From positions 2,604,001-2,668,000 of the forward strand of contig CP089279.1 in assembly GCA_023920165.1 (NCBI GenBank): a DNA stretch of 64,000 bases. The letters run 5' to 3'. The translations under genes were made by a program, and so were the position numbers. Source of the DNA: Curvularia clavata. Taxonomy: Eukaryota. Positions within the stretch are counted from its first letter, which is position 1; each line of letters begins with the position of its first letter. The notes under the pieces are model-generated. The model saw only the letters and a program-made list of their open reading frames with translations, did no database searches and had not been told where the DNA came from. This document shows, piece after piece, positions 14,226-44,576 of the stretch.

Positions 14226-17200
14226 ATGCCTGCCACGGGAGGAGGAAGGGCAGCCCATGCCCCGCCCTCCAAGATGCATCCCTCGCGCCGAGAGAGCAGT
14301 GCTACCGCTGCTGCCATCCAGCGCCCCGGCATCAAGACTCGCGCCTATTCAGCCCCTAACGTCCCCAAGTGCGACAGCGACACCAGCAACGGCTCCAACC
14401 GCACAGACGACGACCATGAAGGCGAGGAGATCGCCGACGATGCCTTTTTCCAGCGATATCACTTCCCCCAACCCGTCCCCATTGCCCAGGAGGAAGAGGC
14501 CGGCGGCAGCAGCGCCGAATCCTCTTCAGACACCGAAGGCCCACTGTCACCCACTTATGTCAAGGACCACAGCCAGGCGGGCGACTCCGTCTCCGAGCCA
14601 TCTACAGGGGTGAGTCTTGATGCTATCCCCCCATCCCACTGCTATTTCCACGGCCCAAGTGCTACAAGAGGAGGATCAAGACGGCCATGACGACGACGAC
14701 GACGCGAATGTGAACGAGGAGCAGGTAGACCAAGTGAGACAAGAAGATGGTGAAAAAGGAGTAAGCACAAGGGTGTGGGAAGGACAAGATGAGATAACAA
14801 CACAAAATCTCACACTTCGCAATGCTGACATTTTATTCATCCAGTCTGCCAATAGTGATTCGGCATCAACCAGCATGCCAGACCTGAATATCGCCGTGGT
14901 TGGAGTGCGGGGTTCGGGCAAATCGACCTTTTCACGACGCGCTCTTGGGCTGCCCGACTCCGCCACGTTGGGCAATTGCTCGCGCACAATGGCAATCGAC
15001 GGCACCTCGTATCTGGTCCGCTTCATCGAGATGGCCCTCGCCGATGTGCACGTGGGAGAGCGCGGTACCATCAAATGGCCAGAATCCGTAGCCGACTCTG
15101 CAACCCCTCGTATACATGCTGCCGTTATTCTCTTCGATGTGACAAACCAGGAAAGCCTGGTTAATGTTCCTGAAATGCTCAGTTAGTGCCCGTTTAACCG
15201 GCCCACGAGGCGCCTCCACCTACGCGCCCCTTGCTGACCATGTTCGCAGACACGTTCAACAAGGCCCAACTGCCGTTTGTTTTGGTGGCCTGCAAGTGCG
15301 ATCAACACCCCGCTCATCGCGAGGTCGATCCGTCGGATGTGGAGCACAGAGCAAAGTCCCTCATTGGAGACGTGACCGTGTTTCAGACGTCCGAATCGTC
15401 GCCGGAGGCGCACCGAGCATGCCTGTCGGTCATCACCCGCGCAGCCATTGCAGCCAAGCGACGTGAGTAATTCATTTCCTTTTTTTTCCTTGACAAGCCC
15501 ATCCCGCCCAAAAAGTGACGTGTCGAGCGTGTCACCCCCCCATGGCCAGGCTTCGTGTACCTGCGCACTAGGATGCAAGTCATTAACGTGCTTCAGCACC
15601 CTCCCAAGCCTCCACAGCTCGGCGCCGGGCCAACTCTTCCGCTGTCCAGTCCAAGACCCAAAAGGACCTTTGGGGCCGCAAACACGAGCGAGCTAGCTCG
15701 GAAATCTCCCTCAGGTTTCAACGCAGGCCTAGTGAGGCCAAGGGCCACCGTTATAAGCCCAGCGACGTCAACAAAACGTTCTTCAACGCCGACGAGTCGC
15801 CCGGCTACGACTCGCAGGATTCCGATGATCAAGACTCGGATGCCGGGCAAAGCATCATGTCAGTGAAGCCTTCCGATGAAAATGGATACACCTTCGAGCA
15901 GCTCGTTGACCGCCTGCTGGCCCAACCAATGTCCAAGAATGACACAAAGTTCGTCTCCGTCTTTTTGGCCTTGTACCGGAGGTTCGCTACACCGGGCCAG
16001 CTGCTCGAGGCCATTATCAAGCGCTTCGAGGCCTTGAACAAGGACAAGGAGCCGCGCATGCTCCGCATCATTGCTCAACTCCGCTACCTTTCCATTCTGC
16101 ACCAATGGGTCGCCTACTACCCTGGTGATTTCGCCTACCCCACGACCCGCCGCTTGGTCCGAAGGTTTGCATCCTCGCTGGCCTCGAACCGTGAGTTTTC
16201 CGTCGCAGCAACCGAAATCCTACGCGATCTCGAGATGGTTACCGAAGACGACGATACCGACTGGGCCTGCAGCGACCGTCAACGGGCGCAAAACGAAAAT
16301 GTGCCTGCCTTCCACAACAACGTACTTGATGAGGATTCAGACGAAGACGAATTTTCGAGGGCGTTGGGCCACATGTCCATGGACGATTCCTCACGAAACT
16401 CAATTGCCCAGAGCAGCATGACTGGCGGGGCGCCATCTACAAGCGAGTCCATGGGCTCATCACAGACGCTGCTCACCCAAGTTGAGAAGAATGAACGGCT
16501 TGCCCGACAGCTCGAGCCTAACCCTATCAAACCACTATCCAAAATCCAGTGGCATCAGTTCATGAGTGAACCCGAAGAAGCGATTGCCAGAGAACTGACC
16601 CGCATCGACTGGATCATGTTCTCCTCGGTCCGACCACGAGACCTTGTCCGCCATGTCAGCCTCAACCCAGACGAAAAGAAAAGATGCAAAAATCTGGAGA
16701 ATGTCACACGCATGACGGAACATTTCAACTACATTGCACTACTCGTCACCAACTACATCCTCCTCCGAGACAAGCCCAAGCATAGGGCACTAATGATGGA
16801 AAAGTGGATGAAGATTGCGAGGCAGCTTCGCAAGCTGAACAACTACAACATGTTGGGTGCTGTCATGGCGGGCATCAAGGGCACAGCCATCATCCGCTTA
16901 CATGCAACCAAGGACTTGGTCCCACAAGCCACGACTCAAGACTTTTGGAAATTGGATATTCTGATGAGCCATACCAAGTCGCATGCCGCATACCGATTAG
17001 CCTGGGAAAACAGCTCAGGACAACGCATCCCATACATACCCTTACTTCGCCGCGATCTCGTCTCCGCTTCAGAAGGCAATTCCACCTTTATCAGCGACAG
17101 CAAAAAGACAGACTCGGCATTGGCACCGCATCCTGGTGTCAGCGTATTCGAGGCTGCTGCAGGCAAGCGTGACAGTCGAGAGCCATTACCGGGAGGAGTT

Positions 17201-17494
17201 GTTGGCAAAGAGAGGATCAATTGGCGCAAATTTGAGATTATGGGCGAAGTGGTTGTTGGAGTGCAACGCGCCCAGGGCACACCTTATCCCAACTGGCAAA
17301 AATGCGAAGAGATTCGGACGCTTATCCTTGATGTTAAGATCAACAAGGACGACGAGGTAACTGCTGCAAGATTCCTTTCATGTGTTTTCAGACAGCTAAC
17401 ATTGGACCAGGAACTCTGGGAGCGAAGCGCTCATCTCGAAGCCCAAGGAGCGAATGAAAAGGGGAGAATTGCTCGATGGTTTCGAGAGCGTTAG
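14226..17494 (+). CDS. RasGEF (REM + CDC25 domain) with an N-terminal Ras-like P-loop domain, 5 exons
   Basis: Introns 14610-14844, 15182-15249, 15463-15596 and 17357-17410. GVRGSGKST and CKCD motifs; FLALYRRFATP (REM); IARELTRID, LNNYN and IPYIP (CDC25). Confidence 0.9.
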
Positions 17495-19342: not shown

Positions 19343-20726
19343 GATGGAAGCAGCAGTTTATGTAGGCGGATAAGGGCACGTAGTGGATGCGTGATCGGTG
19401 ACGTAGGTGTGTGTGAGATTGTATGGTAGGAGCTGCGAGTGCGTGGAGCGGGTTGTGCTAGTGCGGGGTAGGAATGGTAGGTAATTCACATGTCTGCTAC
19501 CTACGTAGTATGTACAAACGGTGTCTAGAGTATATGACGAGACGAAAAGTTCAAGGCACGGTAAATTGCCAGGCGTACGTGATGAGCATGACGGTTCCCG
19601 TGTCATGGTGTTAGATGCATCGGCGTTGAGTGATAACGTTGAGACGTGCTTCTCAACAATTTCTGGGTCCTCAATATGCTTGAATCCGTCCAATTTGGTG
19701 GTAAGAAGTTGTTCCTATGCTTGTTGATGCACTTTGGCTTCCGTGGAGGTCGTCTTCAGACTGATCACTCGCAAGGATACGCAGCACGCAAGAAAGACCT
19801 CAAAAAGCATGTATATCTCGAGTAGGCATCGAGTCTAGAACATGTCCAGGTTTAGCTAGTTTATTTGTGCTACCTTCATAGTACACGCTAAAGGTATCTC
19901 TGTTGTCGTCTAACCATGCGCGGTGGCTGTATGGCGGACTAGTCACCTGCATTGTACCAATGGCTACGCTAGAAGAGCAGGTATACCGTACCTTGTATAA
20001 GCAAAAACAAAGATGCAAGTTTGAAGATAAAACCAAATGGCGTTGCATAGCACATCCACATTTGCCCCATGAGGCGAAAACGCATACTATACACCAGGTC
20101 CGCCATGGCCCCTTGCTATTAATACACTTGAAGCCGGCTAGTTGCTTGACGTTTGGCACCCTTCGCTCTGCCGGATAGCGGGGACGGTTGACACTGCTTG
20201 GAGGCTGGTGGTTTCCCCCACCTGGTCACATTACCGCCAGTGCCAAAGACCAAGACGCACCGCGCATCCAAGACCCAAGCCTTACTCGCACGCGATCAAG
20301 ACGCCGTCATTCGATGATTAACGTTTGTGGAAAATGACGCGGGGAGCAAGTGGCCCACAGCCCGCCGAACTCTGTGAGCCGGTGCTCAGCCACCGAAACG
20401 CGTCGCAAGGGTGCTGGGCCTTCCCCTTCCGAGCCCCCCAGGCATGTTTCGCCTTAAGCAGCGCCTTCATTCAGGGAGAGCGGCACACTCAACAACCGCC
20501 TCTCTGCTCAGGTCTCCCCAGGCTCTTCTCTTTTCTGGTGCCATGTACCCGGAAGCCATGTGAGGAACGGAACGTCGTCTGCCGTCGATCGTCATAACCC
20601 TAGCCTCCTCACCAGCGTCGCATCGCAATTCACCATTTGACCTTATACCCGCTGGCCGGAACTCGTCTTCCTGACGCTTTCGTTCCCGCCTGCACTGCGA
20701 CTTGCCGTCGCACCTCAGGCTTCGCG

Positions 20727-23809: not shown

Positions 23810-23866
23810 CACCAGGTGGGGCAGTAATTCGTTGTGCATCTTGTGATGAGTAATCCACCCCAACAC
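23810..23866 (+). repeat. Left TIR CACCAGGTGGGGCAGTAATTCGTTGTGCATCTTGTGATGAGTAATCCACCCCAACAC
   Basis: Exact reverse complement of 25377-25433. Confidence 0.95.
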
Positions 23867-23951
23867 TCCGCAGTGTCGCACCTACCCACCACCATCTTCA
23901 CAGCCACACAACGCAGCCAATACTAGTCCAAATGAATCAATTCAAAGTGCA

Positions 23952-25253
23952 ATGGACAGGCCTTCTACTCCAGAAAACTTTTGCGTGCTAAAAGTACCAG
24001 ATACTGAAGAGCGTGCGCACTTTTTTGACCATTACGATCGGCGGGGCAAAGGGGACACACTCAGGGGCATTGCAGAACAACATGGTATCCACCGCAACAC
24101 AGCAAGTAAATGGCTCAAAGATCGCAAGGAGTTTGGAGACGAGAGGCGCGTAAGGAAGAGGAAAGCAGAAAAACAAGGAAATAAACTTGGACGGCCATTC
24201 AAAGTGCCTTTGGAAACTATTGAATCTCTCCTCGATGACAGTCAGAATCCTTACCGCGATGCACCTTACTTCCTTCAAGCCCGCGCCAACCAAATCCCTC
24301 TTAGTGAGCGTGCATTAAGGTATAATCTATCAAGTAGACTTGATGCCCATTTATATGTGGCGTCTTACTCAAAAGACATTCTTCCAGCCAACAAAGTATA
24401 CCGTATTCAGTATGGTGAAGAGCACAAGAATAAGCCATTATATGGCTACTGGGATGGTGTCTGGTTTACCGACGAAGAGCATTTTAACCCTCGTACTTCA
24501 TTTCAAAAGCCTCGGATACTCCGGCGTCGTGGTGATCCTCGGACAAAAGGGAGTAACTTGCGCACCCGTAGTGAAATGGGGAAGGATTCTAGGACAGTAC
24601 ATATGTACGCAGCAGTTAACTGGTACTATAAAAGTGCTTTAAACTTCTACAACGACGACTCTGAGATGCTTACACCTCCTAAGCCTCCAAGAAAGCCAAG
24701 AAAATCAAAGTACCAGACTGAGAAACAGTACGCCGAAGAGATCAAAGAATGGGAGGCAAAGAAGCCCCCTCCTTTGCAGGTTGTCAGTACCGGCCACCAT
24801 ATGACTCAAGAGTATTACACTGAAACTATACTACCGTATTACTGCAAGTTAGTGCAGGAATCTCGGGCTGTAGATACTTTAGGTATCACCACCTGGAGAT
24901 TACAGGAGGACAACGACCCATCCCATGGCACAAAAAGTCAGAACAACATTGCAAGAGACTACAAAACAGCTAACTGGATTGACGTTATTATACACCCACC
25001 ACAGAGTCCTGATCTAAACCCACAAGAAGGTGTGTGGTTGATTCTTAACCAGCGCATGAAGAAGAGACTTTGGTGGCCTTTACCACCCCAAAAAAGATGG
25101 GATGGGACAAAGAAACATCTCAAATTACTTCTCCAAGAGTGCTGGGACACTATTACTATCCAAGAAATAAGAGAGAGAATCATGGAGATGAAGGAGCGGT
25201 GCGAGGAATTGACCCGTAATAGTGGTGAGAGAATTCGCGGCAGAAAGTGGTAA
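23952..25253 (+). CDS. DDE transposase (Tc1/IS630-like, DD38E spacing)
   Basis: N-terminal HTH (LRGIAEQHGIHRNTASKW); WFTDE, LQEDNDPSH and PPQSPDLNPQEGVW motifs. Confidence 0.92.
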   Translation: MDRPSTPENFCVLKVPDTEERAHFFDHYDRRGKGDTLRGIAEQHGIHRNTASKWLKDRKEFGDERRVRKRKAEKQGNKLGRPFKVPLETIESLLDDSQNPYRDAPYFLQARANQIPLSERALRYNLSSRLDAHLYVASYSKDILPANKVYRIQYGEEHKNKPLYGYWDGVWFTDEEHFNPRTSFQKPRILRRRGDPRTKGSNLRTRSEMGKDSRTVHMYAAVNWYYKSALNFYNDDSEMLTPPKPPRKPRKSKYQTEKQYAEEIKEWEAKKPPPLQVVSTGHHMTQEYYTETILPYYCKLVQESRAVDTLGITTWRLQEDNDPSHGTKSQNNIARDYKTANWIDVIIHPPQSPDLNPQEGVWLILNQRMKKRLWWPLPPQKRWDGTKKHLKLLLQECWDTITIQEIRERIMEMKERCEELTRNSGERIRGRKW

Positions 25254-25376
25254 AACACCAAGTAAAACTCTAAAAAATCAGTATATACAGAGTTTGTTAC
25301 ATAGTTTCATAACTACATTACTTAAAAAGCATATAAGATAGATGCGCAGTTCATTATTTTGTATGGGGGGTTGGGT

Positions 25377-25433
25377 GTGTTGGGGTGGATTACTCATCAC
25401 AAGATGCACAACGAATTACTGCCCCACCTGGTG
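25377..25433 (-). repeat. Right TIR
   Basis: Exact inverted copy of 23810-23866. Confidence 0.95.
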
Positions 25434-26416
25434 TCCCTGCTGCGAAAAAAGAGTGGGGCGCGCGCCACAACCTTAAACCAAAGCGCCGACGTCACTTGCA
25501 GTCCCCTAAACGGCAGCGATCTGTACAAACACACCATGGCGCCATCACTCACCGCTCCAAACAGAGTAAAGCTCGAATAAGAGACACCCAACCGCTGCCA
25601 GTAGCTCCCCTCCTTCTTAACCCTCGCTTGTTCCGCATCCAGCACATCGTTGCCTATCTCATCTTCCAAGTCTTATCCGGCTCCTTGTGCCGTTACCACT
25701 CTGGTTTCATTTCCCCCCAAATGAACGGCGATGAACGGTCATCGTGGGGGAGAGCACAGAGTCACGCTGACGTCAAAGCTGTGGCGCCCGAACACATTTC
25801 CAAACACATGGGCTCTCGTCTGACACGGTGACGCCACAGATTGTACGAGGTGGGAGAGGCATGGGATTCTCGACCCCAGAAAAAAAACAAGGTCGGACGT
25901 TTTCGTCATTTAGCGTGAACATGGGATTGCCTTTCGAGGGTCTGCTCACACCACTCCATGATGTTGTGACGGGGGCTGGCTTATCGTACTATGTTCTGCT
26001 ACTATGCGGTCATGATTCGATATGCGGATGCGTTGAAGCCCCCTGCGAATCTGAACTGGTTTTTTCTCACTCTCTTGGTTTGGGCTAGAATGCTGATTGC
26101 GATTGATTATGCATGTTGCTATTCGTAATTGTAATTGTAATTTTAATTTTCCCGTCATCACATTTTGCCAGTCTGAGCACGGGCGGCTGCGGAGAATTAA
26201 GAGCATGGTTTTCGTACTACCTGCATGGTGTGTTACGCTCCGTACATAGGGTATTAGCGCTGGTGCGCTCTGAGTACCTATCATGGGAGGCTCTCTTCGA
26301 GCACGTGATCAAACATGATACTATTTGTATCACGTCCATTGTACTAAGACTAGGTGCGGAGAAGCGTGCTTTGCACGAAGAAGAGCGCTTGTATGTATGA
26401 CAACTCAGAGCCCTAT

Positions 26417-29400
26417 CTAGGTGGGCGTCGGGGACGCAATCGAAGGCTGGACTGAGCCACTCGAGCTCAGATTATCTGCATCTTCCTCGTTCTGTTTCTG
26501 CGCCAGACACTTCTGGCCCTTTGCACTCTTCCAATGTCGACTCAGCATATCTCCGCGTTTGAAAACACGCCCACAGCCCCAGTGCGAGCCATCGTTGAGC
26601 TCGCCCTCACAAATAAACTTCTTGGCATCTTTGTGTGCAGTCGTTTCATGCCGGGTGAGAGCCCCCTTTCTTGTAAAGCTCTTGCTACATATTGCACAAA
26701 CAAAGGCTGGCTTGTTTCCGCTCTCTGCGTGGCGACTCCGCATATGAATTTGCAGGTTGTGATTCCGAGTGAATTTAGCGTCACAATCATTGCAGTCATA
26801 GGAAGACGGGAGTTCAGGATACTCTGCTTCATCGTCGTCGTATTCAAACGTTCCGTGGTACATGGTCTCGTGCTTGTGCAGTTCTTTCAGCGTACCACAA
26901 CCTATTGTGGCCATTGCGCAGCCTGAGAATGAGCAGAAGAATGACCTTTCGTGCTTCTTAATGTGGTCATCTCGTTCTTGTTTCGTTTTGAAGCCGCTAT
27001 GGAATCGTATGCAATTGGCTCTGGGACATTTGAAAATATCGGCCCCATACATGGACGCAAGCCTTCCCTTGCTCGGCGCTGAACGAATCGCTGGTTCGAG
27101 ACGCTCCCGTACTTTGAGTAATGCATCGTGAAGTTTGAGTGCTTGAGCATCTGGCAAGTGTGCCGTGGAGGCAAGGAGCTGTCTCTGTGCAAGATGACCA
27201 GCAACGACGAGTTTGTCAAAGTTGCGGTTGTTCGAGAGCGCCTGCCATCGGGCTGAAAACGTCTTTGGAGGCACTGTCTTCGTCTTTGGTTGCGTCCAGT
27301 ACATGTCGATGAAAACTTCCGCTGCCTCGGATATCTCTTTCGTGGCATCTTCGGACTCTTGTACACGCAAAAAGGCATCCAGATGACGAGCCCAGTAGGC
27401 GTAGGCGTAGTCGACAAAACCGTAGTACCCCGAGGGTATGTATCCTGAAATATTCAGGCTATCGTCTTCAACATCAAAGCCTTCAAAACACAAGTATGAA
27501 ATGCACAGTAGAGCTAGAGTGCCTTCGCCTGATTCGAGGCTGACAAGACTCTTGTCGAGTAGATATCTGCGAAACTTAGTATATTAGGATCGATGATATC
27601 ACCACGCTTACTGGAAACAATCAATTTTTACAAACCGGGGATAGGACCGACCTTTTAGCAGAGTGATGGACAAGCACAACAGTGCCGTCGGTTTGGACAT
27701 CCACCAACGATCCACACAAGTCTTTCGAATCTACACGGAATCTGTTGCGCCCCCAATTTACAGTCTGGTCCTCCAGGTTGATTGAGACAGCGCACTGAAT
27801 CTCTCGCCACAGAAGAGGGCGTTTTGCACATACAAGCCACGTCAGCAGCTGGAGGGTATTTTTACTTGGAGACCCTCGATCATTAGATAATCGTTGCATG
27901 ATGCGGGTGTAGCTGCTCATGTTAGCCATATTTCGTAGGTTATCCCAAAATACACATACATCGCTTCTAGCCTCGTACCCCCTTGAGGAAAGTTCTCTGG
28001 CAACAGTTCCTTATCGAGTTCTGCTCTTGAGTCTTGATCGATGAGGTAGGAAGTCATGAGGTGCGCGAATAGGAACATGCCTGTACAATTCAGAACCAAC
28101 ATCTTCAATGGGTTGGCATTGCATTTGCACTCACCATCAGCACTCTTCGTTACCTGGTCTTGAATCCATTGTTTCCGATCTTCAGTTAGGTCAAATTTTT
28201 GTTTGATGATCATACTTCTTGCTGCTACGAAATGAGTTATATCTTTCCTTGTGTGGCTCTCTGTAATCTTTATCGACGACATAGCAGCAAAATCTTTCCT
28301 CGAGATATCGTCATCTTGGCTAATGAACATGCAGCGCAGTGAGTCCTTGTCAGCCGAGGGGACCGACTCCCATGTATCTTTGAAGAAAGATACAATCTGT
28401 TGTCGTTGCTCACGTTCACACTCGTCAAGTCCGTCGATAACAATATAAAGCTTTTCGAAGGCCTTCAACGATATTTCAAGCAATTCTCGTGCAGTGCTTT
28501 CGAGGGAGAGCGTGACCTGTCCACTTGTGGATAGCTTTTCGTAGAGATATGATAGCAGTGAGGCATCCTTGAAGAGTAATTGGGATAGAATACCGCGTGC
28601 AACAGCGAGGAATGTATTACGTGCACTGTCCAGGTAACGGCAGTAGAAAAACGCAACTTGCACGTCCTGTAGCTTCCCAACTTCTTCAATTTGCTCAACT
28701 ACTAGTGAAGTTAGAATTGTTTTTCCTGTCTACTTCGTGAGAAAAAGGCTCTATTCAAGGATTATGCGAGCTGACCTGCACCAGGAATACCGGTCATCCA
28801 AAGTAAATGTGCTGAACATAAGTCTGGCTCAAACCAGGAAGAAAATTGGCGCTCTTGCAAAAGCCAATGTCCACTCCCTGGAAACTCTTGACGCACTTTG
28901 GCATATGCTTCTTGGTCAGCACGACAGTTGGCTGCGGCAAGCCATTGATATACAACCATGCGACGCTTATATACTTCATCCTTGCTCTGTTGATCAAGTT
29001 CTTTTTCTATATGACGGCGTAATCGAAGAATCTCAGAGAATTGAGCGACAGAAGCTTGGGATTTGATCAACTCCATGTGTGCGTGTAAATTGCGGAGTAT
29101 AGCGGCGAACTCTGTGTCGAAATTTTTCCAAAGGGCCTGGGAGAGCTGTCGCCAAACTGTCTTTCATTAACCCTATTGTTTCTTTTCGAAAGGTGAAGTA
29201 CCAGATAGACCCACTGCGATTTTTGAAATATTTCATCGCTTTGAAGTGAAATTTGAGTATATCTTCGTATATCAGGCTCAGCAGCCGAGCCATTTGCGGA
29301 TGTTTCCGAAAATAATCTTCGTACTGGGCCAAGAGAGGTATATGCTCGCCCATGCGCTGATAGGCATCTAGCAGGGCATCAAAAGCCTCGTGAAATGTAC

Positions 29401-29887
29401 ATGCTACCTTCTTTGTAATTAGAACTTTGGATCTCGCCAGTGTCGGTCCGAGTACGTATTGTGTATCTAAGTAGCACATAACCAAGTCGGTTTGAAGAAT
29501 AGCGAACCTGATTCGAATCGAGTGAAAAGACAGGCAGGAAAGACATGTACCTGTAAAAGAAATTTCATTGGACCCTAAGCGCCTTGAATTTAGCCTGTGG
29601 TGTATTGTTTCGAGGTCAACGACTCGTACCCAAACAAACGCCAGAATTGGACCTGTGTTGAGAAATACGGATACGACCTTGTCGTACTCCTTCATGCCCT
29701 CGAGAAATAGCTCTAGTTTGCTCATGGCACGCAGCCTTTTATCGGATTGCTGCTTGCGCTGAATTGTCTCTATAGCCATGTGAAGATCATCGAGAGTCGT
29801 TACCGTGAATTGTCGCTTCTCTTCCTCACTCAAGCTTAGCTTGAACTCTTCCAACACTCGTTGAAACGTCGTGAGTTGTGCTGCCAT
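26417..29887 (-). CDS. NACHT (STAND/NLR-like) NTPase with helical N-terminal domain, winged-helix region and five C-terminal C2H2-type zinc fingers
   Basis: Multi-exon model (about 8 exons) stays open. Walker A GIPGA^GKT, VAFFYC, Walker B YIVIDGLDE, GMFLFA, WLVCAKRPL and VHHSAK; C-terminal CxxC...HxxxH repeats. Confidence 0.88.
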
Positions 29888-30227
29888 GTGAACATGCGTG
29901 CGACAAAGTTGATCATACTGTTATCAAGGGGAGAGTAGAAAGAACGATATCGTGCTGAGGAAGGAAGGCTGAATATGGCGGGCTGGTCTGTGCACAGATT
30001 GCGCATCTCCACATCCGCCCCCAAGGCTGCGCCTTGCTCGCCAAAGACACTCGCACAGTCTGCCTTGTGTGATCTTGCCGCTCACACGAATTTATAGACG
30101 TAGGCAGTGTTTAAATTGGAGCTTCCATGCGTGAAGGACTTTGGCGAACAAAGGGTTTCTTCAGCGCTACCGTCACTGCTCTACCGTTACGGTCCAAAGC
30201 AGACCCACATCATATCACGGCCTAACA

Positions 30228-33200
30228 ATGAAGAGACCATTATCTCCGGTTGGAGAAAGAGATTCATCCAAGCGGAACACGAGAAGTCTGATTGCTGGGT
30301 CAGGTAATAAGCTGTAACATAATCGGAGGCTGTAGACTGACAATCACTTGAGATGATACTGAACCGCAATCTTGTGCTACTCGCGTGTTCGTTGATACTA
30401 CGAGGAAAGCAAGTTCAAATAATATCCCGAAATCTCTGAGTATAGTACATACTCGTAATTCGGACGAACGAGACAACTTGAAGGAAATTTGTTACGGTTC
30501 GGTAACGATCACAACCGAAACCTGATAATACCGTACGAGTCACTAACGCCTCTAGCTACTTGAACTGGCTCTTCAGATAAGAGAAGACCCGCTCATCTAC
30601 AGAGAGTATGTGGTTCAGGATGTCAAAGGCAATTTTGTTCAACTCAAACCTGACTTTGCCGGCGGCTACTGCTGGATGAGCCTCCATGATGCTGTCAACT
30701 TCGGATGCTTAAATCAAAAGACTTCACAAGCCTTGAAACGTCTAACAGCTCTTCCTAACGTCGATTTTGAGGGCATTGCCTCATGGCACAGTCTAGAGAA
30801 GGCTAGAGCTTCATGGAAGAAATCAGGAAGCTCTACACATTTGCTTGTTGACATGAATATATACGGCCCAAGTACCGTCGAAGTCGCTAAGGAGGCTGGC
30901 AGAATCCTCAGTAAGGCGAGGCTATTTCTGCAAACTCCCAGTTCTATCACGAGACCGGTCATTCATGATAACCCTCAGTATCTCAAACTACCTGATGTCT
31001 CGCACCTAAAGATCACCCACACACCAAACCCAAATTTAGTGGAGCCAGTATTACACAGCGAAAACGAAATTTCGCATTCGGATATCGAATCTGTACTGGA
31101 CAATATGCCACAGTCGAAAGTTTTGAGGGAAGTATCTACAAGCTGGCAAATACGGACAGTTTTGAAGAAGTACGTTCTCAGCACACTTAAACATCGTTGA
31201 CTAACCCTAGAAAGTTACCAGAGAGAGGCCGTTGACTTTATTAACAGAAGGGAGATGGGGGATTTGCTTCCTTCGCTAAACCTTTGGGAACCTTGCTCTC
31301 TTCCTGAGGGCCGTTTCTGGTAAGTCTGTCATGCCGAAATCGTCGCCTCCCGACTAAGACTCCAGTTATAAACATGTCATTACTGGTGCGAAAAGTAGCA
31401 CAATGGAGGATACTTTAGGAGGCATCTTTGCCGATGAGATGGGTCTCGGAAAGACGTTGACAATGTTAGCTGTGATCGTAGGGTCTCGCGAGCGAGCGAT
31501 CAACTACAATGTAGGGCTTACAGCAGGCTCAACAAGCTCATGGAAAGATCTTCCTCCTTGCAAGACTACCCTTGTCATCGTGCCATCTTCCTGTAAGTGA
31601 TGCATAAACAATCCATCATTCTGATCTAATATATTTAGTGTTGCTAGAAAGCTGGGAAGAAGAGATTACGAAGTCAGTTTAGAACCATATCATTGGTTTG
31701 TTATCTGATGTATTTTAGGCACATAGAGCCTGGTACGCTCCAGGTCTATCGCTACCATGGTTTGGGAAAACGCATCGATCTCCCTGATCTTCTTCGCATG
31801 GATATTGTCCTCACAACATACGCGACAGTCGCTGCGGAATTTTGTCGCGGAAAAAGCACATTAAACCGCATTTCCTGGTAATACCGTTTGGTTCTAGATG
31901 AGGGTAATGCAGGCCTCTCATCTGTAGCGCTTGTGGTAAATGCTGACATTCTTAGCTCACTACATCCGCAATCCCTCACGGCAGCAGTTTCGGGCAATTC
32001 ATACCATACCTGCTCGTATTCGATGGTGTATGACGGGTACTCCCATACAGAACTCCTTAGAAGATTTAGGTGCCCTTGTAAAATTTTTGCGTATACCAGT
32101 GTTCGACGACTTGGCGTCGTTTCGCCGGCACATCAGCACACCAATCCTGTCGAACACTAACAACCGTTTTGGTAATTTAACCAGACTCCTGGAAGCGATA
32201 TGCTTACGTCGCACCAAAGCGGTCTTAAAACAACCTGAGCCGGTTGTCGAAACAAAGCTGGTCCAGTTTTCTGCCGAAGAACGGATACAGTATCGCGATT
32301 ATGCAGAGCGCTGTAAACGTGCTATCGATTTGGCTGTTTCAGGGCGGAGCTTCCAAAAAGCTAACCAGCAAGTCATTCAGACTATTCTAGGCCTAAGGCT
32401 ATTTTGTAACGACGGAGAAAGATCACTCGCCCAAAGAAACTCACCATATGGTCTCTCAGGATCGCCGGAAGAAGTTCTAAGCTTCCTACAGACTTCTTCT
32501 GAGGCGGTGTGTTAATTGTGGCTGCGAAATCACAGCAATGTACCAAAGCGACGATAAGAGCTCGGGCGTACTTACTATCTGTCATCATCTCATATGTGGT
32601 GAGTGCCTTCCCGATTTTGAGTCGGACCTTGACGACAATTGCGAAGACGGACGCAGCAGCTGCCCGTCCTGCGGACTGAGTGCAGAGAGGTCTTCTTTTA
32701 TTATCGCCACTTGCTCGGATTCAGAAATCTCTGCAGATATCCAAAATAAAACATGGCCCACAAAGCTGCACGCAGTACTTGGCAGCGTTCGGGAACAAGG
32801 ATTGAATGACAAATGGTAGGTTTCGCGGTCATTACCATTTATCGTTGACCCTTAATGTTCCACGACAGCGGACTTACCTGATGCCTAGTATTATATTTTC
32901 CGCCTGGAAAACAACGCTCGACATCATGGCCGGTATATTCGATCAAAGTTCCATCTCATATTTTCGTATACACGGTAGCATACCAGCCAATAAGAGGAGC
33001 AAGATTCTCGCGGACTTCGAACACTCCATGACGACTAGGATCTTATTAATAACCTTGGGCACCGGAGCGGTCGGGTATGTCTAACTCGCTGCGATAACCA
33101 CCCTGGCTGATGATACCCAGCTTGAACAAAATGAAGACTGCCAATATTGTTCATATTATAGAACCACAATGGAATCCTTCGGTTGAGCACCAAGCAATTG

Positions 33201-33498
33201 GGCGCATCATACGGCTCGGACAGGAAAAAACGGTAAAGATTGTGCGCTATATTATGGAAGGAAGCGTCGAGAAGGTATAGTACGGCCCTGGGATCTTTGG
33301 AGGATAACATTTGACGTTCATCAGGCCGTACAATCCCGCCAACTGCGCAAACTCCAACTCGCACGGGGAGGATTTGGTCTCTCCAAGGACGATCATAGTG
33401 AGCAGCGAATCAATGGGATTATGGTAAGCCACAAAACTCATCTCCTCTACTAAATGCTAAGGACATATTAGAGTTTAATTTGCCCCTCTGTCTCGTAA
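30228..33498 (+). pseudogene. Rad5/Rad16-like SNF2 ATPase with RING finger; in-frame stop and frameshift
   Basis: GGIFADEMGLGKT, DIVLTTY, LDE^AH, TGTPIQN, LRRTK, IIFSAW and EPQWNPSVEHQAIGR motifs. TAA at 31879-31881 just before Walker B, and a frame change at about 32510 in the RING. Start MKRPLSP at 30228 inferred via intron 30304-30352. Confidence 0.8.
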
Positions 33499-34589
33499 AA
33501 AAAGCGCGTCGACCTCCCACTCTCTACTCTAGAAGGATAGTTTAGTCCTCTCCGAGCCCAACTTGTCTGTGTATGACGAGATCTCTTTCTCATTAAACGT
33601 AGTCATGCAGAGAATTTACATTCGTGTACTCAGAATCAGTCTAGCCTTGCACACTCAAAGGTATCCTCTATAAGACTAGCTAAATATGGTATTAGCGTCA
33701 AATCGCCTGTCTATCTCAGCTCTCCTCACTTTGCATCACCGCAATTCTCCCAGGCAGCAACTTAAAGGCACCGGTGAGGTCGCCTAACCCTGTATTTCAG
33801 AACAAACGACCCAATAGCAGACTAGAATAGAGATTGGGGGCTGAATAAGCCGTGTCCAGGATTCAATCTCATTGGTAACATCTTAAGCGCGACCCCACCT
33901 GAAGGAGCAGGAAGAGATGCACGCATTCGGATATCATGTATTGGCTTTGGCAGCGCGAAGTCCTGGAGCCCTCGTCCAATGAGAGAGCGATGACCGCGGC
34001 CCCTGCAGTCTGGTGGTGCTCACACCATTGCCAGATGGGCGCGAAGGGTAACACACTATTAGTATTACTACAAACAGCATTAAAAATCGTGAATGATCGC
34101 ATAATGTCATGTGCCACTGAGAGAAGTGAATTGCACTATCTTAAAGTCGGCGAAAGCCTGCTGTCATGGCAAGGAGTGTTTTTCTTGCCCTACTTTGGCA
34201 TATAGTCGTAGACATAGTGAGCAGGCCATAAGCATAAGGCCACTGGAAGAAATGCAATTCTCTCATGTGCTTATGAAAACCACGAGTCAACTATACTTGA
34301 ACTGTGCTTTGGCACGGTCATATGTATCATAAGTATATGTTTCCCCAATCACAGCCAGTGTGACTCGCGTGATAAGTAATGCACACCATTTCATAACAAC
34401 ACGGTTCGTAAGAACCATGCATCAACAACAATCATCGAAAACATTTCCCCTGAATATTTCGCCATTTTGTATTGATTTACACCCTGTTCACTACACAGTC
34501 ATCATATACACCTACATCAAGCATAGCCATATAAGAAATCACTCCAGTCTAGTCCAAGCAAGTTCCAACCATACAGATGCTCTCCTTCC

Positions 34590-35828: not shown

Positions 35829-37304
35829 CTAGAGAAGTTGCTTCATAATGTCTATCTGCTCCATGACAGCACTCTTGCTTGTACCGCCAGTAGCATTCTT
35901 TAGCTCGACTGCGCGCTCGTAGTCTAAGCACTCTACGACATCATCACCAAGTCTGGAGTCGATGCCCTTGAGCTGCTCCAGACTCAGCTTATCCATGGGC
36001 ACATTCTCCTTCTCTGCGAGAGCTACCACACGGCCGGAGATGTGGTGGCCCTCACGGAATGGCACGCCCTTCCGGACGAGGTAGTCTGCGAACTCTGTAG
36101 CCAGCATTTCAGGAGCCAGCGCAGCGTGCATCTTATCGGCGTTGATGGTAAGAGTTGACAGAACGCCAGTGGCAATCTGAATGGAGTCGCTGACGGTCTT
36201 GATGTGGTCGATAAGAGGCTCGACAGATTCTTGAAGATCCTTGTTGTAGGTTGTTGGAAGACCCTTGATCGTGACGTACAGACCTGCCATGTGTCCGAAT
36301 GCACGACCACTCTTGCCACGGATCAACTCGAGCGAATCTGCGTTCTTCTTCTGGGGCATGAGGGAGCTTCCGGTCGAGTACGCATCAGCCAGGCGTACGA
36401 AGCCAAACTCCAGACTTGAGTAAATGATCAGATCCTCTGCCCAACGAGACATCTTGAGCATGAGGCTGGATCCCCACTGTAATGTCTCGAAGACGAAGTC
36501 ACGATCTCCGACCGCATTCAATGAGTTTGGAAGGAGACCCTCAAATCCGAGCTCCTTAGCCATAGCATGACGGTCGATGTTGAACGGGTTGCCCGCAAGC
36601 GCACCACAGCCGAGTGGGGACCTGTTGACACGCTTGATAACTTCACGGAGGCGCTCAAGCTCAGATGCGAAAGCGGTCGCGTGTGAAAGGATCCAGTGTG
36701 ACCATCGCACTGGCTGAGCTTTCTGAAGATGAGTGTAACCGGGCATGAGGACGTCGATCTCGGCCTCTGCTCGCTGAACTGACGTCTTGATCAAGAGCTT
36801 CAGGTTACTCTCCAGTGTCCTGAGCTGCTCCCGCAGCCATAATCGCATGTCGGTTGCGACTTGCTCGTTCCTGCTGCGCCCTGTGTGTAGCTTTCCGCCA
36901 ATTTCTTTGCCAATAATCTCGCTCAACCTCCTTTCGTTGGCAGTGTGAATGTCCTCATCGTTTGCCTTGACTTCAAATGTGTTGGAGGCCCACTCTTGCT
37001 TGATCTGTGCCATTCCCTTTTCAATGGCAGCAAATTCATCCTCGGTAAGGATGCCATTGTTCTTGTTGGCGCGTGCAAAAGCAATTGAGCCAGCGATATC
37101 CTCGGCGTAGAACAGGCGGTCGTAAGGCAGCGAGGCGTTGTACTGCTCCATGACGGGGTCAAGGCCCTCTACACACGTCTTAGTACCATCCTCTCACGCC
37201 AAACGAGTCGCGCTCTTTGTAGGCCAATTGAGGCACTGGAGGCACTTACCTGTGAAACGACCACCCCAGAGCATGTTTTCTGCTACTTTCTTTTCTGAAG
37301 CCAT
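35829..37304 (-). CDS. ARG4: Argininosuccinate lyase
   Basis: LWGGRF, HTGRSRNEQ, MPGYTHLQ and STGSSLMPQKKN signature; intron about 37169-37250. Confidence 0.97.
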
Positions 37305-39931: not shown

Positions 39932-41445
39932 TTAGTTTTCATCCTCATGTGCGGCGGCCCAAGGACTTCTCTTCCGCAATGATACTCCTCGCACCTCAAG
40001 TATAAAAGGTATAGGCGCTAAGAGAATGGCGATAGCCATCAATACCAAGGTTGTGTTTCTAGTGCCAATGCTGAGAAAAAGATGCCTGCCAACGAGTGGA
40101 AAGCCGGCGCCAGCCAGATTTCGGATGAGTCCAATGCCAGCAAGTGCTGATGCCGAATACGTTTTGTAAGCGTCTTCTGTGTATGTGAGGGTCATGAGTA
40201 CTGTGCAAATTTGTTAGAACGAAGCCCTCAGTACTATCAAGAAAACATACTCAGGGTGTAGAAAGACCATCCCCAAAAGGCGCTGGCAAGCACTGCAAAG
40301 AACGGATGTATCTCCGGCGTAGCTGTGAGTGCAAAAGCCAAAAGCGAGACCGGCAGTATTAGAGCAGCTGACTTCGCATAATGTACCCGTGCTTCTGGAA
40401 CGTCGTGACCACCGGCTTGGGCGACACGTTTCTGATAGTATCTTTCTTGGAAAGTATTCGTGATGAGACCAAGTGTGATACCGACGACTATCCCGAGAAA
40501 CGAGATGCCAACACCAATAGTATCGAAACCGTAGCCATTTGGTCCAAAGATCATGTGAAAAGCACCATTGAACAAAAAGGACAGGCCATATAGGAAGCCA
40601 TTGTAAAGAGCGCTGAACTGGACAATAGCTTCCGTGGTGAGGAACCTGAAAGGTCTAGCAAGTGCAGTGCCGAATAATTGCTTCGGTCCTCGTTGCTTCA
40701 GCTCATCCGGTATCTCCAGGCTGTCGTCTCCCGTTGCGTTGCGCAGAGCTTTTGCTTTCTTCAACAATATCACACTATGTCGTGTCTCTCCCAAGGTGCA
40801 AAGAGCTGTAACCATGATGATCCAGAACGCGAAACAGATCACTAGCATGAAGCGGAATACGCTGTGCCATGATTTGCCCTGTGCAATGAAGGAAAAGAGC
40901 ACAAACCCTGTCGGACTACCTCCTGTCGCAGCCCAGAGAAACCAAGACATTGCCGGCCCAGTGTCATTATGATGGAAAAGGTCTGCTATGGTTCCTCCGA
41001 AGTTCGATATCGTAGTCGAAGAGAAATACCCAGAGAAGAATCTGAGGACAATGAACAATCCCAAGGTCTCAACGTATGTCGTTCCCAGAAGAAGAAGCAG
41101 GAATATCCCATACGAAACAATGTAAACAGGTCTGCGTCCAAAATACTCTGACAGGGGTGCTAGAGTCATGGGTCCAAACGCCAGCCCAAGCACATACATG
41201 CTCAGTCCCAGCAAGGCGACACTTGGTGATACACCCATGTCTTTCGCAAAGTCACTTGCGACAGGACTGAACCCACTAGCTCCCCAGGAAACGCTGAGAT
41301 CTATAGGTACTATTGCAGCGATCATAAGCCATTTTCGTGCTGCTGGCCAGTTGCGCGGGTCTTCCGGATCGTTTGGCTCAAATGTTATAATTTTGGATGG
41401 TGCTCTGGCGAGTAACGGCGCATTTTCAGTTTGTGAGAAGCTCAT
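39932..41445 (-). CDS. MFS transporter (DHA1 drug:H+ antiporter-like)
   Basis: DPEDPRNW, APLSEYFGRRPVY, GGTIADLF and PEAR motifs; multiple TM segments; intron about 40201-40250. Confidence 0.92.
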
Positions 41446-42467
41446 GTTTGCAGGGATGAGGCTGGGAGAGGGTCTTCTTTGCGCCTTGCCGTTGATGCGC
41501 TTGGAATCTACTGTACGTGGGAGATGGAGGACTAGTGCAGCTCGTGGAGGATGACGTAGACGTGACTTCATTGGACAATCTCAGCATGTGCCTTAGGCCT
41601 CTTACATGTCCACAATTCAATGCTCGTGTGTCGTTTTCGAACAACTTCAACGTGGAGTAAATGTTTACCTAGGGAAACGTATTTATATTTTTGTATGCCG
41701 TCCACCGGCAACTCAGCTTGCCAATTTCCAATGTTGTCGCGCCACTTCGTACGACGCGACCACTTCACTTCCCAGGTCAACAGAGTATAGTGGTCGTATT
41801 CCACAGAAATAGGGTCATTGTAAATCCTTTCACAGCACCCGGATACTTGTTGATCAGACCGCAGATGAACCTCGCGTTCTATGGTATCAGGCACCCGTGT
41901 CACGCATTCATTTCCTTAGCGCGTCTCTCCATTCAGCTGCTCGATCCTGATTGCTGCATGTATTATACGACACGGTCCAGCCACCTCAGCACTAGGGAAC
42001 TGTGCATGATCCGGCGTGGACGCTGTTCTGGTGCGTGATTTTCTCAGACTCTCTGAACAATGTACAAAGAGACATAAAAATATAGGTGTTTAATCTTAGC
42101 ATGCACTGGAATGCGCTTATGCCCCTGCCAAGGCTCAAGCTCCGGCTCTAGCAAAGCCATCTAGAATATTTCAAGATGACACAAGGAGATATTGTATACG
42201 ATCAGTTGCCTGAGATGCTAGGAACAGAGCCCCTACTTGTTCTATACAACAAGAGCAAGCGAACTTAATGGTGGCCCGCTTCGGTATACATCCCTCCGAA
42301 GGCCCGACTAGCGTATTTACCCCATATCTCCGATTATTTCTCTACCCCGGATTTGACTAGTCTATCCGGTGGTCATTTAATTAATTTTCCCGGATGTTTG
42401 GATTATAAACATGTAGATGAAGGTACCCTTGAAGCTAAGCCGTGCCTCATAGCATTAAACTCTCATC

Positions 42468-44576
42468 ATGCGCATCATCTCAGCTACCGTGACGCTTACA
42501 CTGTGTATTGAGACATGGGCCTTTTTGAATGCCAGCCAGAACAATCGGAGTCTCACCATTGCTAATGACCGATTGGTTGCATCGGTGAGCAAAACGAAAG
42601 GATATGTCAATGTTCTAACACTCGACGGCCAAAATCTCCTTGGGACGGAAGGTGATAATACTGGTGTTGGACCATATCTTGACTGCTACTGGTGAGTGAG
42701 ATAATGCTCAAGACGCATACAACCATGAGCTGATTTCCTTTTCCTCACGCATAGCACTCCGAGCGGCTTCTGGACTCCGGGTCGCGGCAAGAATGTTCAA
42801 TACCAACTGTTCAACGGCACCGACTCAACAGGCACCCCCTATGGCGGTATCAGCATGGGAGAGACCTACGCGCCTACAGGCCAACGACTTGAACAATACT
42901 GGTTTCTGAGAGAAGGAGAGACTGGACTTCATACCTTCAGCCGAGTCGTGTACAATAACAAGACGACGCCTTTTTTGCGGAACCTACAGGAGTTCCGTAC
43001 CCTGTTTAGGCCTAACCATGACCCTCCACTCTTCACACACTTCATCACGAACGACAAGTTTTCTGCGCCTCGCCCAGACCTCGACGGACAGATCACGGTT
43101 CAAGACGCGACTTGGCAGCTTGCTAATGATGAAGATCCCTACGTGAAAGGTGTGGGAGATTACTTTACCAAGTACACCTTCCAGGATACCTGGCGTGATC
43201 ATCTCGCGCATGGTATGTATGCGGATGGGACGGGTAGCTCAAACGGCTCTACATATGGCGCTTGGCTTGTCCACAACAACGTTGAGACCTATTTCAATGG
43301 TCCAGTGCATTCGGACCTCGTCGTTGACGGTATCGTCTACAACTACATGGTCTCCAACCACCACGGCGACCAGACACCAAATATCACTGACGGCTTCGAC
43401 CGCACCTTTGGCCCGCAATACTTTCACTTCAACGCTGGTGGTTCTCTCGAGGAACTACGCAAAGACGCAGAGCAATATGGCCAGCGCCCAGAATGGAACG
43501 CCGAATTCTACGACTCAATCTCCAAGCACGTTCCCAACCTCGTTCCCACCTCAGGCCGCGGAACTTTCAAAGCGAAAGTCGCCCTGCCCAAAGGCGCCAA
43601 GAACCCTATTGCTATCCTGACTGAAAACGGCCGCAACTTCCAAGACAACGTCTTCGATACAAAAGCATACCAGTACTGGGAAAATGTCTCTCCCAACGGC
43701 GACGTCACCATTCCGCGGGTAAAAGCAGGAAAATACCGCCTTACAATCTACGCCGACGGTATCTTTGGCGACTACACCCAAGACGATGTTTCAGTAACAG
43801 CCTCCAAAACGACATCCCTCGCCGTCAAATGGGTCCCCGAGTCCGCAGGCAAAGAGCTCTTCCGCATCGGCGTGCCCGACAAATCCTCTGGCGAATTCCG
43901 CCACGGCTACACCCCTTCGCCCACACACCCCTTACTCACAGAAGAATACCGTCTCTACTGGGCTGCATACGACTTCATCACCGAGTTTCCCCAGGGCGTC
44001 TCGTTCAAAGTTGGTCGTGACGATATCGCTTCAGCCCTCAACTACGTGCACTGGGCGGTTTTCGGCGGAAAGGCGAATTCCAAGCGGCCAGTTCCTGTCC
44101 CCGATCACCAGTACAATTGGACAATATTGTTTGATGCCAAACGCGAGGAGTTGCAGGGGAAGAAGAAAGCGACTTTTACAGTGCAGCTGGCGGGTGCAAA
44201 AACGGCTGCGGGAAACACCGATGTGTATAATGCGAGTGAGCCGTATTCGAATCTGCCATATACGGTTAATGTGAATGGGAAAGATCTGGAGCCGTGGGTG
44301 ATTCCGTAAGTGCTATTGTTGTCATCATGTTCCTCTGCTGCTACTGTTTCTAACACCTGCACAATTAGATACTACCAATCGTCCTCCTGTGCCGTCCGTT
44401 CAGCAGTCATATGCTATTCTCTGGCGCACAAATTCGAGTTCTCGGCTGAGATGCTGAAGCAAGGTGAGAACAAGTTTGTGCTCAGTCTGCCGTACAACGG
44501 CACAAACTACGAAAGTGCGCTCTTACCCGAGTCGGTATATGTGCAGTATGATGCATTGAGATTGGAGGTGGCGTAG
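42468..44576 (+). CDS. Secreted rhamnogalacturonan lyase (PL4)
   Basis: Signal peptide; GPYLDCY, LQEFRTLFRP, YFTKY, SNHHG and YDALRLE motifs; introns about 42692-42755 and 44306-44368. Confidence 0.9.

Follow-up and report, generated by a model that had tools for sequence, protein, structure and literature searches.

A stretch of 64,000 nucleotides from the Curvularia clavata genome (assembly GCA_023920165.1, contig CP089279.1, positions 2,604,001 to 2,668,000; called the window below) carries two genes that start head to head from a short common spacer. One encodes a NACHT NTPase ending in zinc fingers, and the other belongs to the SNF2/RING class of ATPases. The initial annotation had described them as a candidate co-regulated two-gene module for nuclear sensing or defence. 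Both gene models were rebuilt by hand from the sequence and then checked by script, and Pfam was run exon by exon. The features obtained, in window coordinates, were as follows.

26417-29887, minus strand: NACHT-zinc-finger gene, intact; exons 29887-29630, 29574-29551, 29407-29215, 29156-28776, 28725-28135, 28080-27960, 27912-27652 and 27566-26417 (stop included)
28136-28723, minus strand: NACHT-type P-loop NTPase core (exon 5)
26531-27046, minus strand: zinc-finger array, two atypical C2H2 fingers followed by classical C2H2 fingers
29888-30227, no strand: divergent intergenic region, 340 bp between the start codons
30228-33498, plus strand: gene with HIRAN-like, SNF2, RING and Helicase_C parts, now a pseudogene; 12 exons, 30228-30303, 30353-30501, 30556-31169, 31215-31319, 31366-31592, 31639-31672, 31719-31903, 31956-32815, 32889-33074, 33121-33274, 33325-33423 and 33472-33498
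30556-30975, plus strand: N-terminal domain with a predicted HIRAN fold (the first 140 residues encoded by exon 3)
31879-31881, plus strand: lesion 1, an in-frame TAA formed by a 3-base insertion
32511/32512, plus strand: lesion 2, a 2-base deletion causing a frameshift
32505-32675, plus strand: RING finger, read in the shifted frame

The NACHT gene begins with an ATG at 29887 on the minus strand, where the initial annotation had placed it, and its stop codon ends at 26417. Its eight exons are separated by seven GT..AG introns of 47-143 bases and give an open frame of 992 amino acids. Residues 3-992 of the translation align with residues 7-991 of the 995-residue ortholog P0006, and the orthologs P0010, P0012 and P0015 likewise align end to end; identity to these four Pleosporales proteins is 51-59% over the whole length. 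A spliced contig of a diverged relative, X4, omits 27565-27649, which is intron 7 with the cut placed two positions to the left, 85 bases either way.

Pfam found NPHP3_N (1.2e-19) and NACHT (0.0043) in the NTPase core, GPIID_WHD (1.9e-9) in exon 7 and zf-C2H2 (2e-11) at the C-terminus. In the ortholog P0010 the first two matches were stronger (NPHP3_N 1.9e-35, NACHT 6.8e-9). The Walker A motif, GIPGAGKT, straddles intron 4, and the Walker B motif reads IVIDGLDEC in the spliced translation, so that the P-loop NTPase with both Walker motifs and the winged helix behind it, as expected of a fungal NACHT-type NOD-like receptor (NLR), are present. An effector-type domain is likewise present at the N-terminus, though its match is weak in the window gene: DUF7708 scored 22.6 bits on one exon there, under the 25-bit cut-off, and 68.5 and 72.5 bits on whole orthologs, and P0222 gave a weak Goodbye match. 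No superstructure-forming ANK, TPR or WD40 repeats were found at the C-terminus of the window protein by Pfam or in the structural model, and a helical domain and C2H2 fingers take their place. In other members of the family (P0016 and the metagenome contig L021, described below) ankyrin repeats replace the classical fingers. The two atypical fingers are invariant throughout the family, the ankyrin-ended forms included, and the cysteine and histidine columns of the array are invariant in alignments A2 and A4. An AlphaFold2 model of the C-terminus (predicted local distance difference test, pLDDT, 84.6) consists of the helical domain followed by a finger array which matches those of CTCF and WT1 (E 6.6e-5); the array may thus be predicted to bind DNA.

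The second gene has its ATG at 30228 and its last codon ends at 33498. Pfam identified SNF2-rel_dom (4.9e-26), a weak zf-RING_5 (4.9e-5) and Helicase_C, and the gene is collinear with its Bipolaris maydis ortholog P0029 (904 amino acids) from residue 50 of the latter to the end, residues 1-49 being unaligned. The position and domains given by the initial annotation were thus confirmed, but the assumption of an open gene was not, as the frame is broken twice. The first break, an in-frame TAA, stands between W and Y of the sequence NRISW-YRLVLDEAH, just ahead of helicase motif II (the DEAH box). In P0029 the W and Y are adjacent, and in the family consensus at this site, W-F-R, a single residue separates W from R, which identifies the TAA as an insertion of 3 bases. 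The second break, a 2-base deletion, lies just ahead of the first RING cysteines. The alignment with P0029 continues without a gap from residue 649 in the next frame, in which the RING finger with the invariant Cys/His columns of the family is read, and the unshifted reading meets a stop at 32513-32515. The X4 contigs have two extra bases behind 32511, which keep the frame open, and do not cover the TAA site.

Contigs from two sequencing runs belonging to two studies, X1 (depth about 90) and X2 (depth about 63), showed no differences from the window across both lesions; record 11 of X2 spans 31363-33500. Interrupted by a stop upstream of the DEAH box and again by a frameshift upstream of the RING, this reading frame cannot yield an active enzyme of the Rad5/HLTF type. 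Of the two genes, only the NACHT gene has kept a complete open frame in this genome; its SNF2 neighbour is a pseudogene, which leaves the unit half dead. The breaks are few and look recent, since the SNF2 gene is otherwise in good condition: over exon 8 it is still 81% identical to B. maydis, and no motif is missing. No Curvularia protein of at least 325 amino acids was found among the SNF2 matches, while a C. clavata NACHT ortholog (95% identical) is present in the same database, which hints that the SNF2 break may predate the sequenced strain.

Two other accounts of the lesions were rejected. Splicing from a donor (GTAATA) at 31878 would skip the TAA, but motif II would lose its DE and the frame would stay shifted, so that the gene is not rescued. 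Repeat-induced point mutation (RIP) was not supported as the origin, as the RIP indices of neither gene are RIP-like and the lesions are indels and not C-to-T changes. As a separate observation, run X4, which may be RNA, is labelled as the species of the likely source, yet most of its contigs over 26411-32637 (13 of 15) fall below 90% identity to the window; the label spans a clearly diverged relative.

The first 280 or so residues of the SNF2 protein gave no Pfam match. When this part was modelled by AlphaFold2 on alignment A3, with 38 relatives, a confident alpha/beta domain was obtained, with residues 1-140 mostly above a pLDDT of 90. Structural comparison by VIA-align placed it closest to the HIRAN domain of human HLTF (4xzg_A, Z 11.4, root-mean-square deviation 2.0 over 103 residues) and to Rad5 of Kluyveromyces lactis (6l8o_A, Z 9.2), the next rows having Z scores of 7.7 and 5.1; every Foldseek row down to rank 15 was an entry for HLTF HIRAN or K. 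lactis Rad5. The Pfam HIRAN model itself was not detected in the window protein, in any of 30 relatives at E values up to 1, or in any of the 120 relatives listed with precomputed domains. The order of the remaining domains is SNF2-rel_dom, zf-RING_5, Helicase_C, which puts the RING between the two motor lobes, as in the Rad5/HLTF family, and zf-RING_5 was found in 28 of 30 family members (best 7e-7). Since the N-terminus is modelled as a HIRAN fold and the RING lies between the motor lobes, the predicted architecture is Rad5/HLTF-like.

The closest solved chain to the SNF2 protein is again K. lactis Rad5 (4e-52), with the match confined to the ATPase core. Several copies of the family occur per genome, with two pairs in Xylaria curta, two in Neocucurbitaria and an additional one in Paraphoma. 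Given this copy number, the restricted Rad5 match, the failure of Pfam to detect HIRAN in any of the 30 members and the evident dispensability of the gene here, the family appears from its sequences to be a multi-copy group of paralogs and not canonical RAD5. It had been allowed from the start that the gene might simply be the syntenic ortholog of RAD5 or RAD16, and the same observations lend this no support.

The two genes were then considered as a pair across fungi. A search with the NACHT-finger exon returned a tight set of Pleosporales orthologs, with 15 matches below 1e-100 followed by a gap to 2e-13, and a search with the SNF2 exon returned orthologs from largely the same species, with further close orthologs on JGI contigs. 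GenBank protein accessions of the two homologs were consecutive in 13 of the 15 species tested, which belong to three fungal classes: Bipolaris zeicola, B. oryzae, B. maydis, Pyrenophora tritici-repentis, Parastagonospora nodorum, Setomelanomma, Plenodomus tracheiphilus, Lophiotrema, Tricladium, Chaetomium sp., Lophium, Amylocarpus and Annulohypoxylon. In the other two species they were 2 (Paraphoma) and 30 (Periconia) accessions apart. We take the order of accessions in such submissions to follow the order of genes. In Xylaria curta the locus tags NUW58_g3536 and NUW58_g3537 are the pair. In the tables of matches, 33 species appear for both genes, and for 30 of these the homologs lie on contigs equal in size, some of these contigs being only 18.5-91 kb.

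With a profile of the NACHT family, 288 relatives below 1e-30 were found in Dothideo-, Sordario-, Leotio- and Eurotiomycetes and in lichen fungi, their C-terminal ends being either classical fingers or ankyrin repeats. A metagenome scan with the SNF2 family alignment, which relied on generic SNF2 motif patterns, returned 80 loci, nearly all of them SNF2 genes from other organisms at about 30% identity. The N-terminal domain of the family is present at just two of these loci: L003, where the gene lies at the contig edge and the upstream side is missing, and L021. On L021 (1278-8955) a distant pair, 21-28% identical, consists of a NACHT-finger-ankyrin gene standing tail to tail with an SNF2 gene of the family. 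Members of the two families are thus immediate neighbours 340 bp apart in the window, and are adjacent also in relatives and on L021, and the enrichment of NACHT-zinc-finger homologs beside SNF2 genes for which the initial annotation had asked was clearly found. The pairing is not due to chance. As the genes on L021 are tail to tail, a shared promoter is unnecessary, and it seems not to be what holds the pair together.

Several observations on individual members of these sets are recorded here. L021 is a GC-rich fungal contig, and the ankyrin repeats of its NACHT gene follow the two atypical fingers. In Periconia digitata the two orthologs lie on one 5.8-Mb contig and still cluster as partners in both trees described below; the pair may have been pulled apart. 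In P. nodorum the locus tags of the orthologs are always 20 apart (e.g. 068970 and 068990), with some accessions consecutive and one protein-less locus between them, and the SNF2 models of this species are short (588-626 amino acids), so that the HIRAN part may be annotated separately or not at all. In one isolate of P. tritici-repentis the NACHT-finger ortholog P0013 (66% identity over 66% of exon 8) is fused to hAT-transposase dimerisation domains in a model of 1308 amino acids, which may mean that a transposon has inserted at the orthologous locus or that two gene models were merged there.

Trees of the two families were built from 31 same-contig pairs; three mismatched species and all unpaired matches were left out. 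The NACHT and SNF2 trees mirrored each other, with 20 of 28 splits in common, compared with a maximum of 3 and a mean of 0.11 in 2000 label shuffles. Both contained a clade that contradicts taxonomy, in which Amniculicola, Lojkania, Zopfia and Lophium (Dothideomycetes) are joined with seven Xylariales, with a support of 100 in the Shimodaira-Hasegawa-like approximate likelihood ratio test in each tree, and the two X. curta pairs were placed alike in both. Whatever caused this clade, old paralogy or transfer, the two genes appear from the trees to have passed through it together. Of the co-regulated module proposed at the outset, the part concerning two conserved neighbours is therefore retained, their trees mirroring each other, while a shared promoter is inessential and the SNF2 half is broken in this genome.

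A direct connection between the proteins was looked for in two ways. In a three-chain co-fold of the DUF7708 region of P0010, the finger region from exon 8 of the window gene and the HIRAN exon of the window, a control outscored the complex. No motif common to both families was found, the best probability in an hhalign comparison of profiles A5 and A1 being 0.1% (E 0.55).

The setting of the locus largely agreed with what had been noticed initially. The spacer of 340 bp (29888-30227), predicted to be about this long, contains no direct repeats and two inverted pairs, both weak: one of 24 nt at 75%, the other a palindrome of 11 nt. In the flanks and the spacer no word of 9-13 bases was found in three or more copies, short repeats being present in two copies at most, and a Crz1-type motif matches the window 15 times, compared with 18.9 expected. 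The block is dense in introns, 18 in the 7.1 kb of the two genes, and its GC content of 0.468 (NACHT gene) and 0.461 (SNF2 gene) is about 5 points lower than the 0.51-0.52 of the rest of the window. No RIP signature was found in either gene from the RIP indices. The adjoining transposon was identified as follows.

23810-25433, plus strand: Tc1/mariner-like transposon, 1 kb from the NACHT gene (Pfam DDE_3 and HTH_23; inverted repeat I1)

This element looks intact, with 60-nt inverted ends that are 98% complementary and an open frame of 467 amino acids, and the 11-base word at the tips of its ends is found a third time at 20216. Further neighbours are a RasGEF (15587-17494), argininosuccinate lyase (35829-37193), an MFS (major facilitator superfamily) transporter (40237-41580) and a polysaccharide lyase family 4 protein (42729-44309). 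No secondary-metabolite genes or further NLR genes were found among the 13 frames scanned in the window.

Parts of this arrangement have counterparts in known systems. Rad5 of yeasts and human HLTF have the same domain order as the SNF2 protein, whose predicted HIRAN fold gave the Z scores above and whose RING lies between the motor lobes. Unlike these, the SNF2 family has a HIRAN region too diverged for Pfam in all 30 members, and is multi-copy, patchy in distribution and dispensable, being a pseudogene in the window. Canonical Rad5/HLTF genes are not known to have a NACHT-finger neighbour, unlike the family described here. For the arrangement of the genes the nearest precedent is Rad16-Rad7, the E3 of global-genome nucleotide excision repair. 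In Pezizomycotina, RAD16 and RAD7 are conserved as neighbours that are transcribed divergently, and their products form a complex (PMC2871058), so that in this case, too, an SNF2/RING ATPase of the Rad5/16-like group stands head to head with another gene. The present partner is a NACHT NTPase with zinc fingers and not a leucine-rich repeat protein, the SNF2 protein has a predicted HIRAN fold, and any interaction here would be putative.

In fungal NLR systems of the NWD2/HET-S type, a NACHT-type STAND (signal transduction ATPases with numerous domains) gene is linked to a partner gene for which a downstream role is presumed (PMC4344463). The genetic linkage of a NACHT-type STAND gene to a second gene is shared with these systems. 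Different from them, the two families here have no common motif (hhalign, as above), the partner is a nuclear-type DNA enzyme and not a pore-former, and the NLR is conserved (51-59% identity) and not hypervariable. The initial annotation had also compared the pair with animal NLRs such as CIITA, which act in the nucleus with SWI/SNF ATPases; this may be no more than a resemblance. C2H2 fingers, mostly C-terminal, are reported for 34 NLRs of the Sordariales and discussed there as non-canonical, possibly decoy domains (PMC12258605). The window protein has such C-terminal fingers, and Sordariales members of its family are among the profile matches; the words helicase and SNF2 do not occur in the passages of that paper searched (0 occurrences). 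No published description of a NACHT-finger/SNF2 pair was found in the literature searched, subscription journals and supplements lying outside the search, and the view that no fungal system with this pairing had been described thus held within that literature.

With moderate confidence, we favour the explanation that the locus is a local copy of a two-gene unit which is inherited, duplicated and lost together in filamentous ascomycetes, combining a DNA-binding STAND switch with a dedicated Rad5-like motor and ligase, and that one half of it is dead here. The first protein would be the switch, in which an N-terminus resembling DUF7708/Goodbye is followed by the NACHT NTPase, the winged helix and a helical domain, and an array of C2H2 fingers (ankyrin repeats in some lineages) forms the sensor end in place of the usual repeats. 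The second would be a Rad5/HLTF-like enzyme with a HIRAN-fold reader of DNA ends and an SNF2 translocase whose motor lobes enclose a RING E3 ligase. The NACHT protein would bind DNA through its fingers, switch or oligomerise with ATP, and then recruit or license its dedicated HIRAN-SNF2-RING partner for remodelling or ubiquitylation at the bound site, in a partnership resembling that of Rad7 and Rad16. Because the SNF2 half is broken, the module would be unable to work as two proteins in this genome. The physical partnership and the biological role of the pair are proposed from the arrangement and predicted domains of the genes.

Several results weigh against this explanation. Consecutive accessions only stand in for adjacency and carry no information on orientation; the orthologs of Periconia digitata are 30 accessions apart, and no same-contig match was found in Trichoglossum hirsutum, Apiospora arundinis and Xylaria arbuscula among the 33 species. 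Most of the congruence of the trees is what common descent would give for any two genes, and only the non-taxonomic clade and the double pair of X. curta exceed it. Contact between the proteins, or a common pathway, is putative, and the profile comparison gave no templating signal of the NWD2/HET-S type between the families. The NACHT gene is still open despite its broken partner, which means that the partner was broken only very recently or that the NACHT protein is useful without it. Finally, X1 and X2 may both derive from the source strain of the window, in which case the lesions could be strain-specific.

The last point leads to the possibility that both lesions are errors or private mutations of one culture, in a species with a working SNF2 gene. 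The good preservation of the pseudogene outside the lesions would fit this, as would the possible common origin of X1 and X2, but runs from two studies match the window at both sites, a 3-base insertion is atypical of read error, and the database that holds the C. clavata NACHT ortholog contains no Curvularia SNF2 protein of at least 325 amino acids; we regard this account as improbable. A more serious competitor, though still an unlikely one, is that the genes are linked only through shared regulation or joint movement, by a bidirectional promoter or on a mobile or horizontally transferred segment, and that their products do not cooperate. Divergent pairs can persist for regulation alone (PMC2871058). 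The common spacer of 340 bp, the low GC content relative to the surroundings and the intact-looking transposon 1 kb away would all be in keeping with linkage of this kind, and the common non-taxonomic clade could reflect transfer of a segment. Against regulation as the only bond stands the tail-to-tail pair on L021, which needs no shared promoter. The adjacency has also outlasted the separation of three classes and at least one duplication, that of the two X. curta pairs, and recurrence together is known for only these two genes, further flanking genes being outside the comparison.

That the SNF2 gene is an ordinary RAD5 (or RAD16) repair gene with the NACHT gene as an incidental neighbour seems very improbable. 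Several database records do label members of the family 'DNA repair protein rad5', and the closest solved chain, the predicted HIRAN fold and the position of the RING all point in the same direction. However, Pfam HIRAN was absent from all the relatives inspected, the sequence match to Rad5 stops at the ATPase core, the family is present in several copies in Xylaria curta, Neocucurbitaria and Paraphoma, and the gene is broken in this genome; as for RAD16, its conserved neighbour is RAD7 and not a NACHT gene (PMC2871058).

If the preferred explanation of a jointly inherited switch and motor/ligase holds, a further step can be proposed, tentatively and as a rather doubtful extension. The unit might be a eukaryotic counterpart of a defence island, a dedicated two-protein system of DNA surveillance in filamentous fungi, in which the NACHT protein would read DNA by its fingers, or another ligand by ankyrin repeats, and license its own motor and ligase, for instance on invading, transposing or aberrantly replicating DNA. 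It would then be duplicated, perhaps transferred between classes, and lost piecemeal in the manner of conflict systems.

Fungal genomes encode NLR-like proteins by the hundred, and for very few of these is a partner or an output known. The pair described here would give one family of NLR-like proteins a constant partner that is inherited with it, and the enzymology of the Rad5/HLTF relatives of this partner is well understood. It opens the questions of what a fungal NLR signals to and whether a STAND switch can work on chromatin. The half-broken copy of C. clavata may serve as a natural experiment, as it indicates that the unit is dispensable and allows the fate of the NACHT gene after loss of its partner to be asked.

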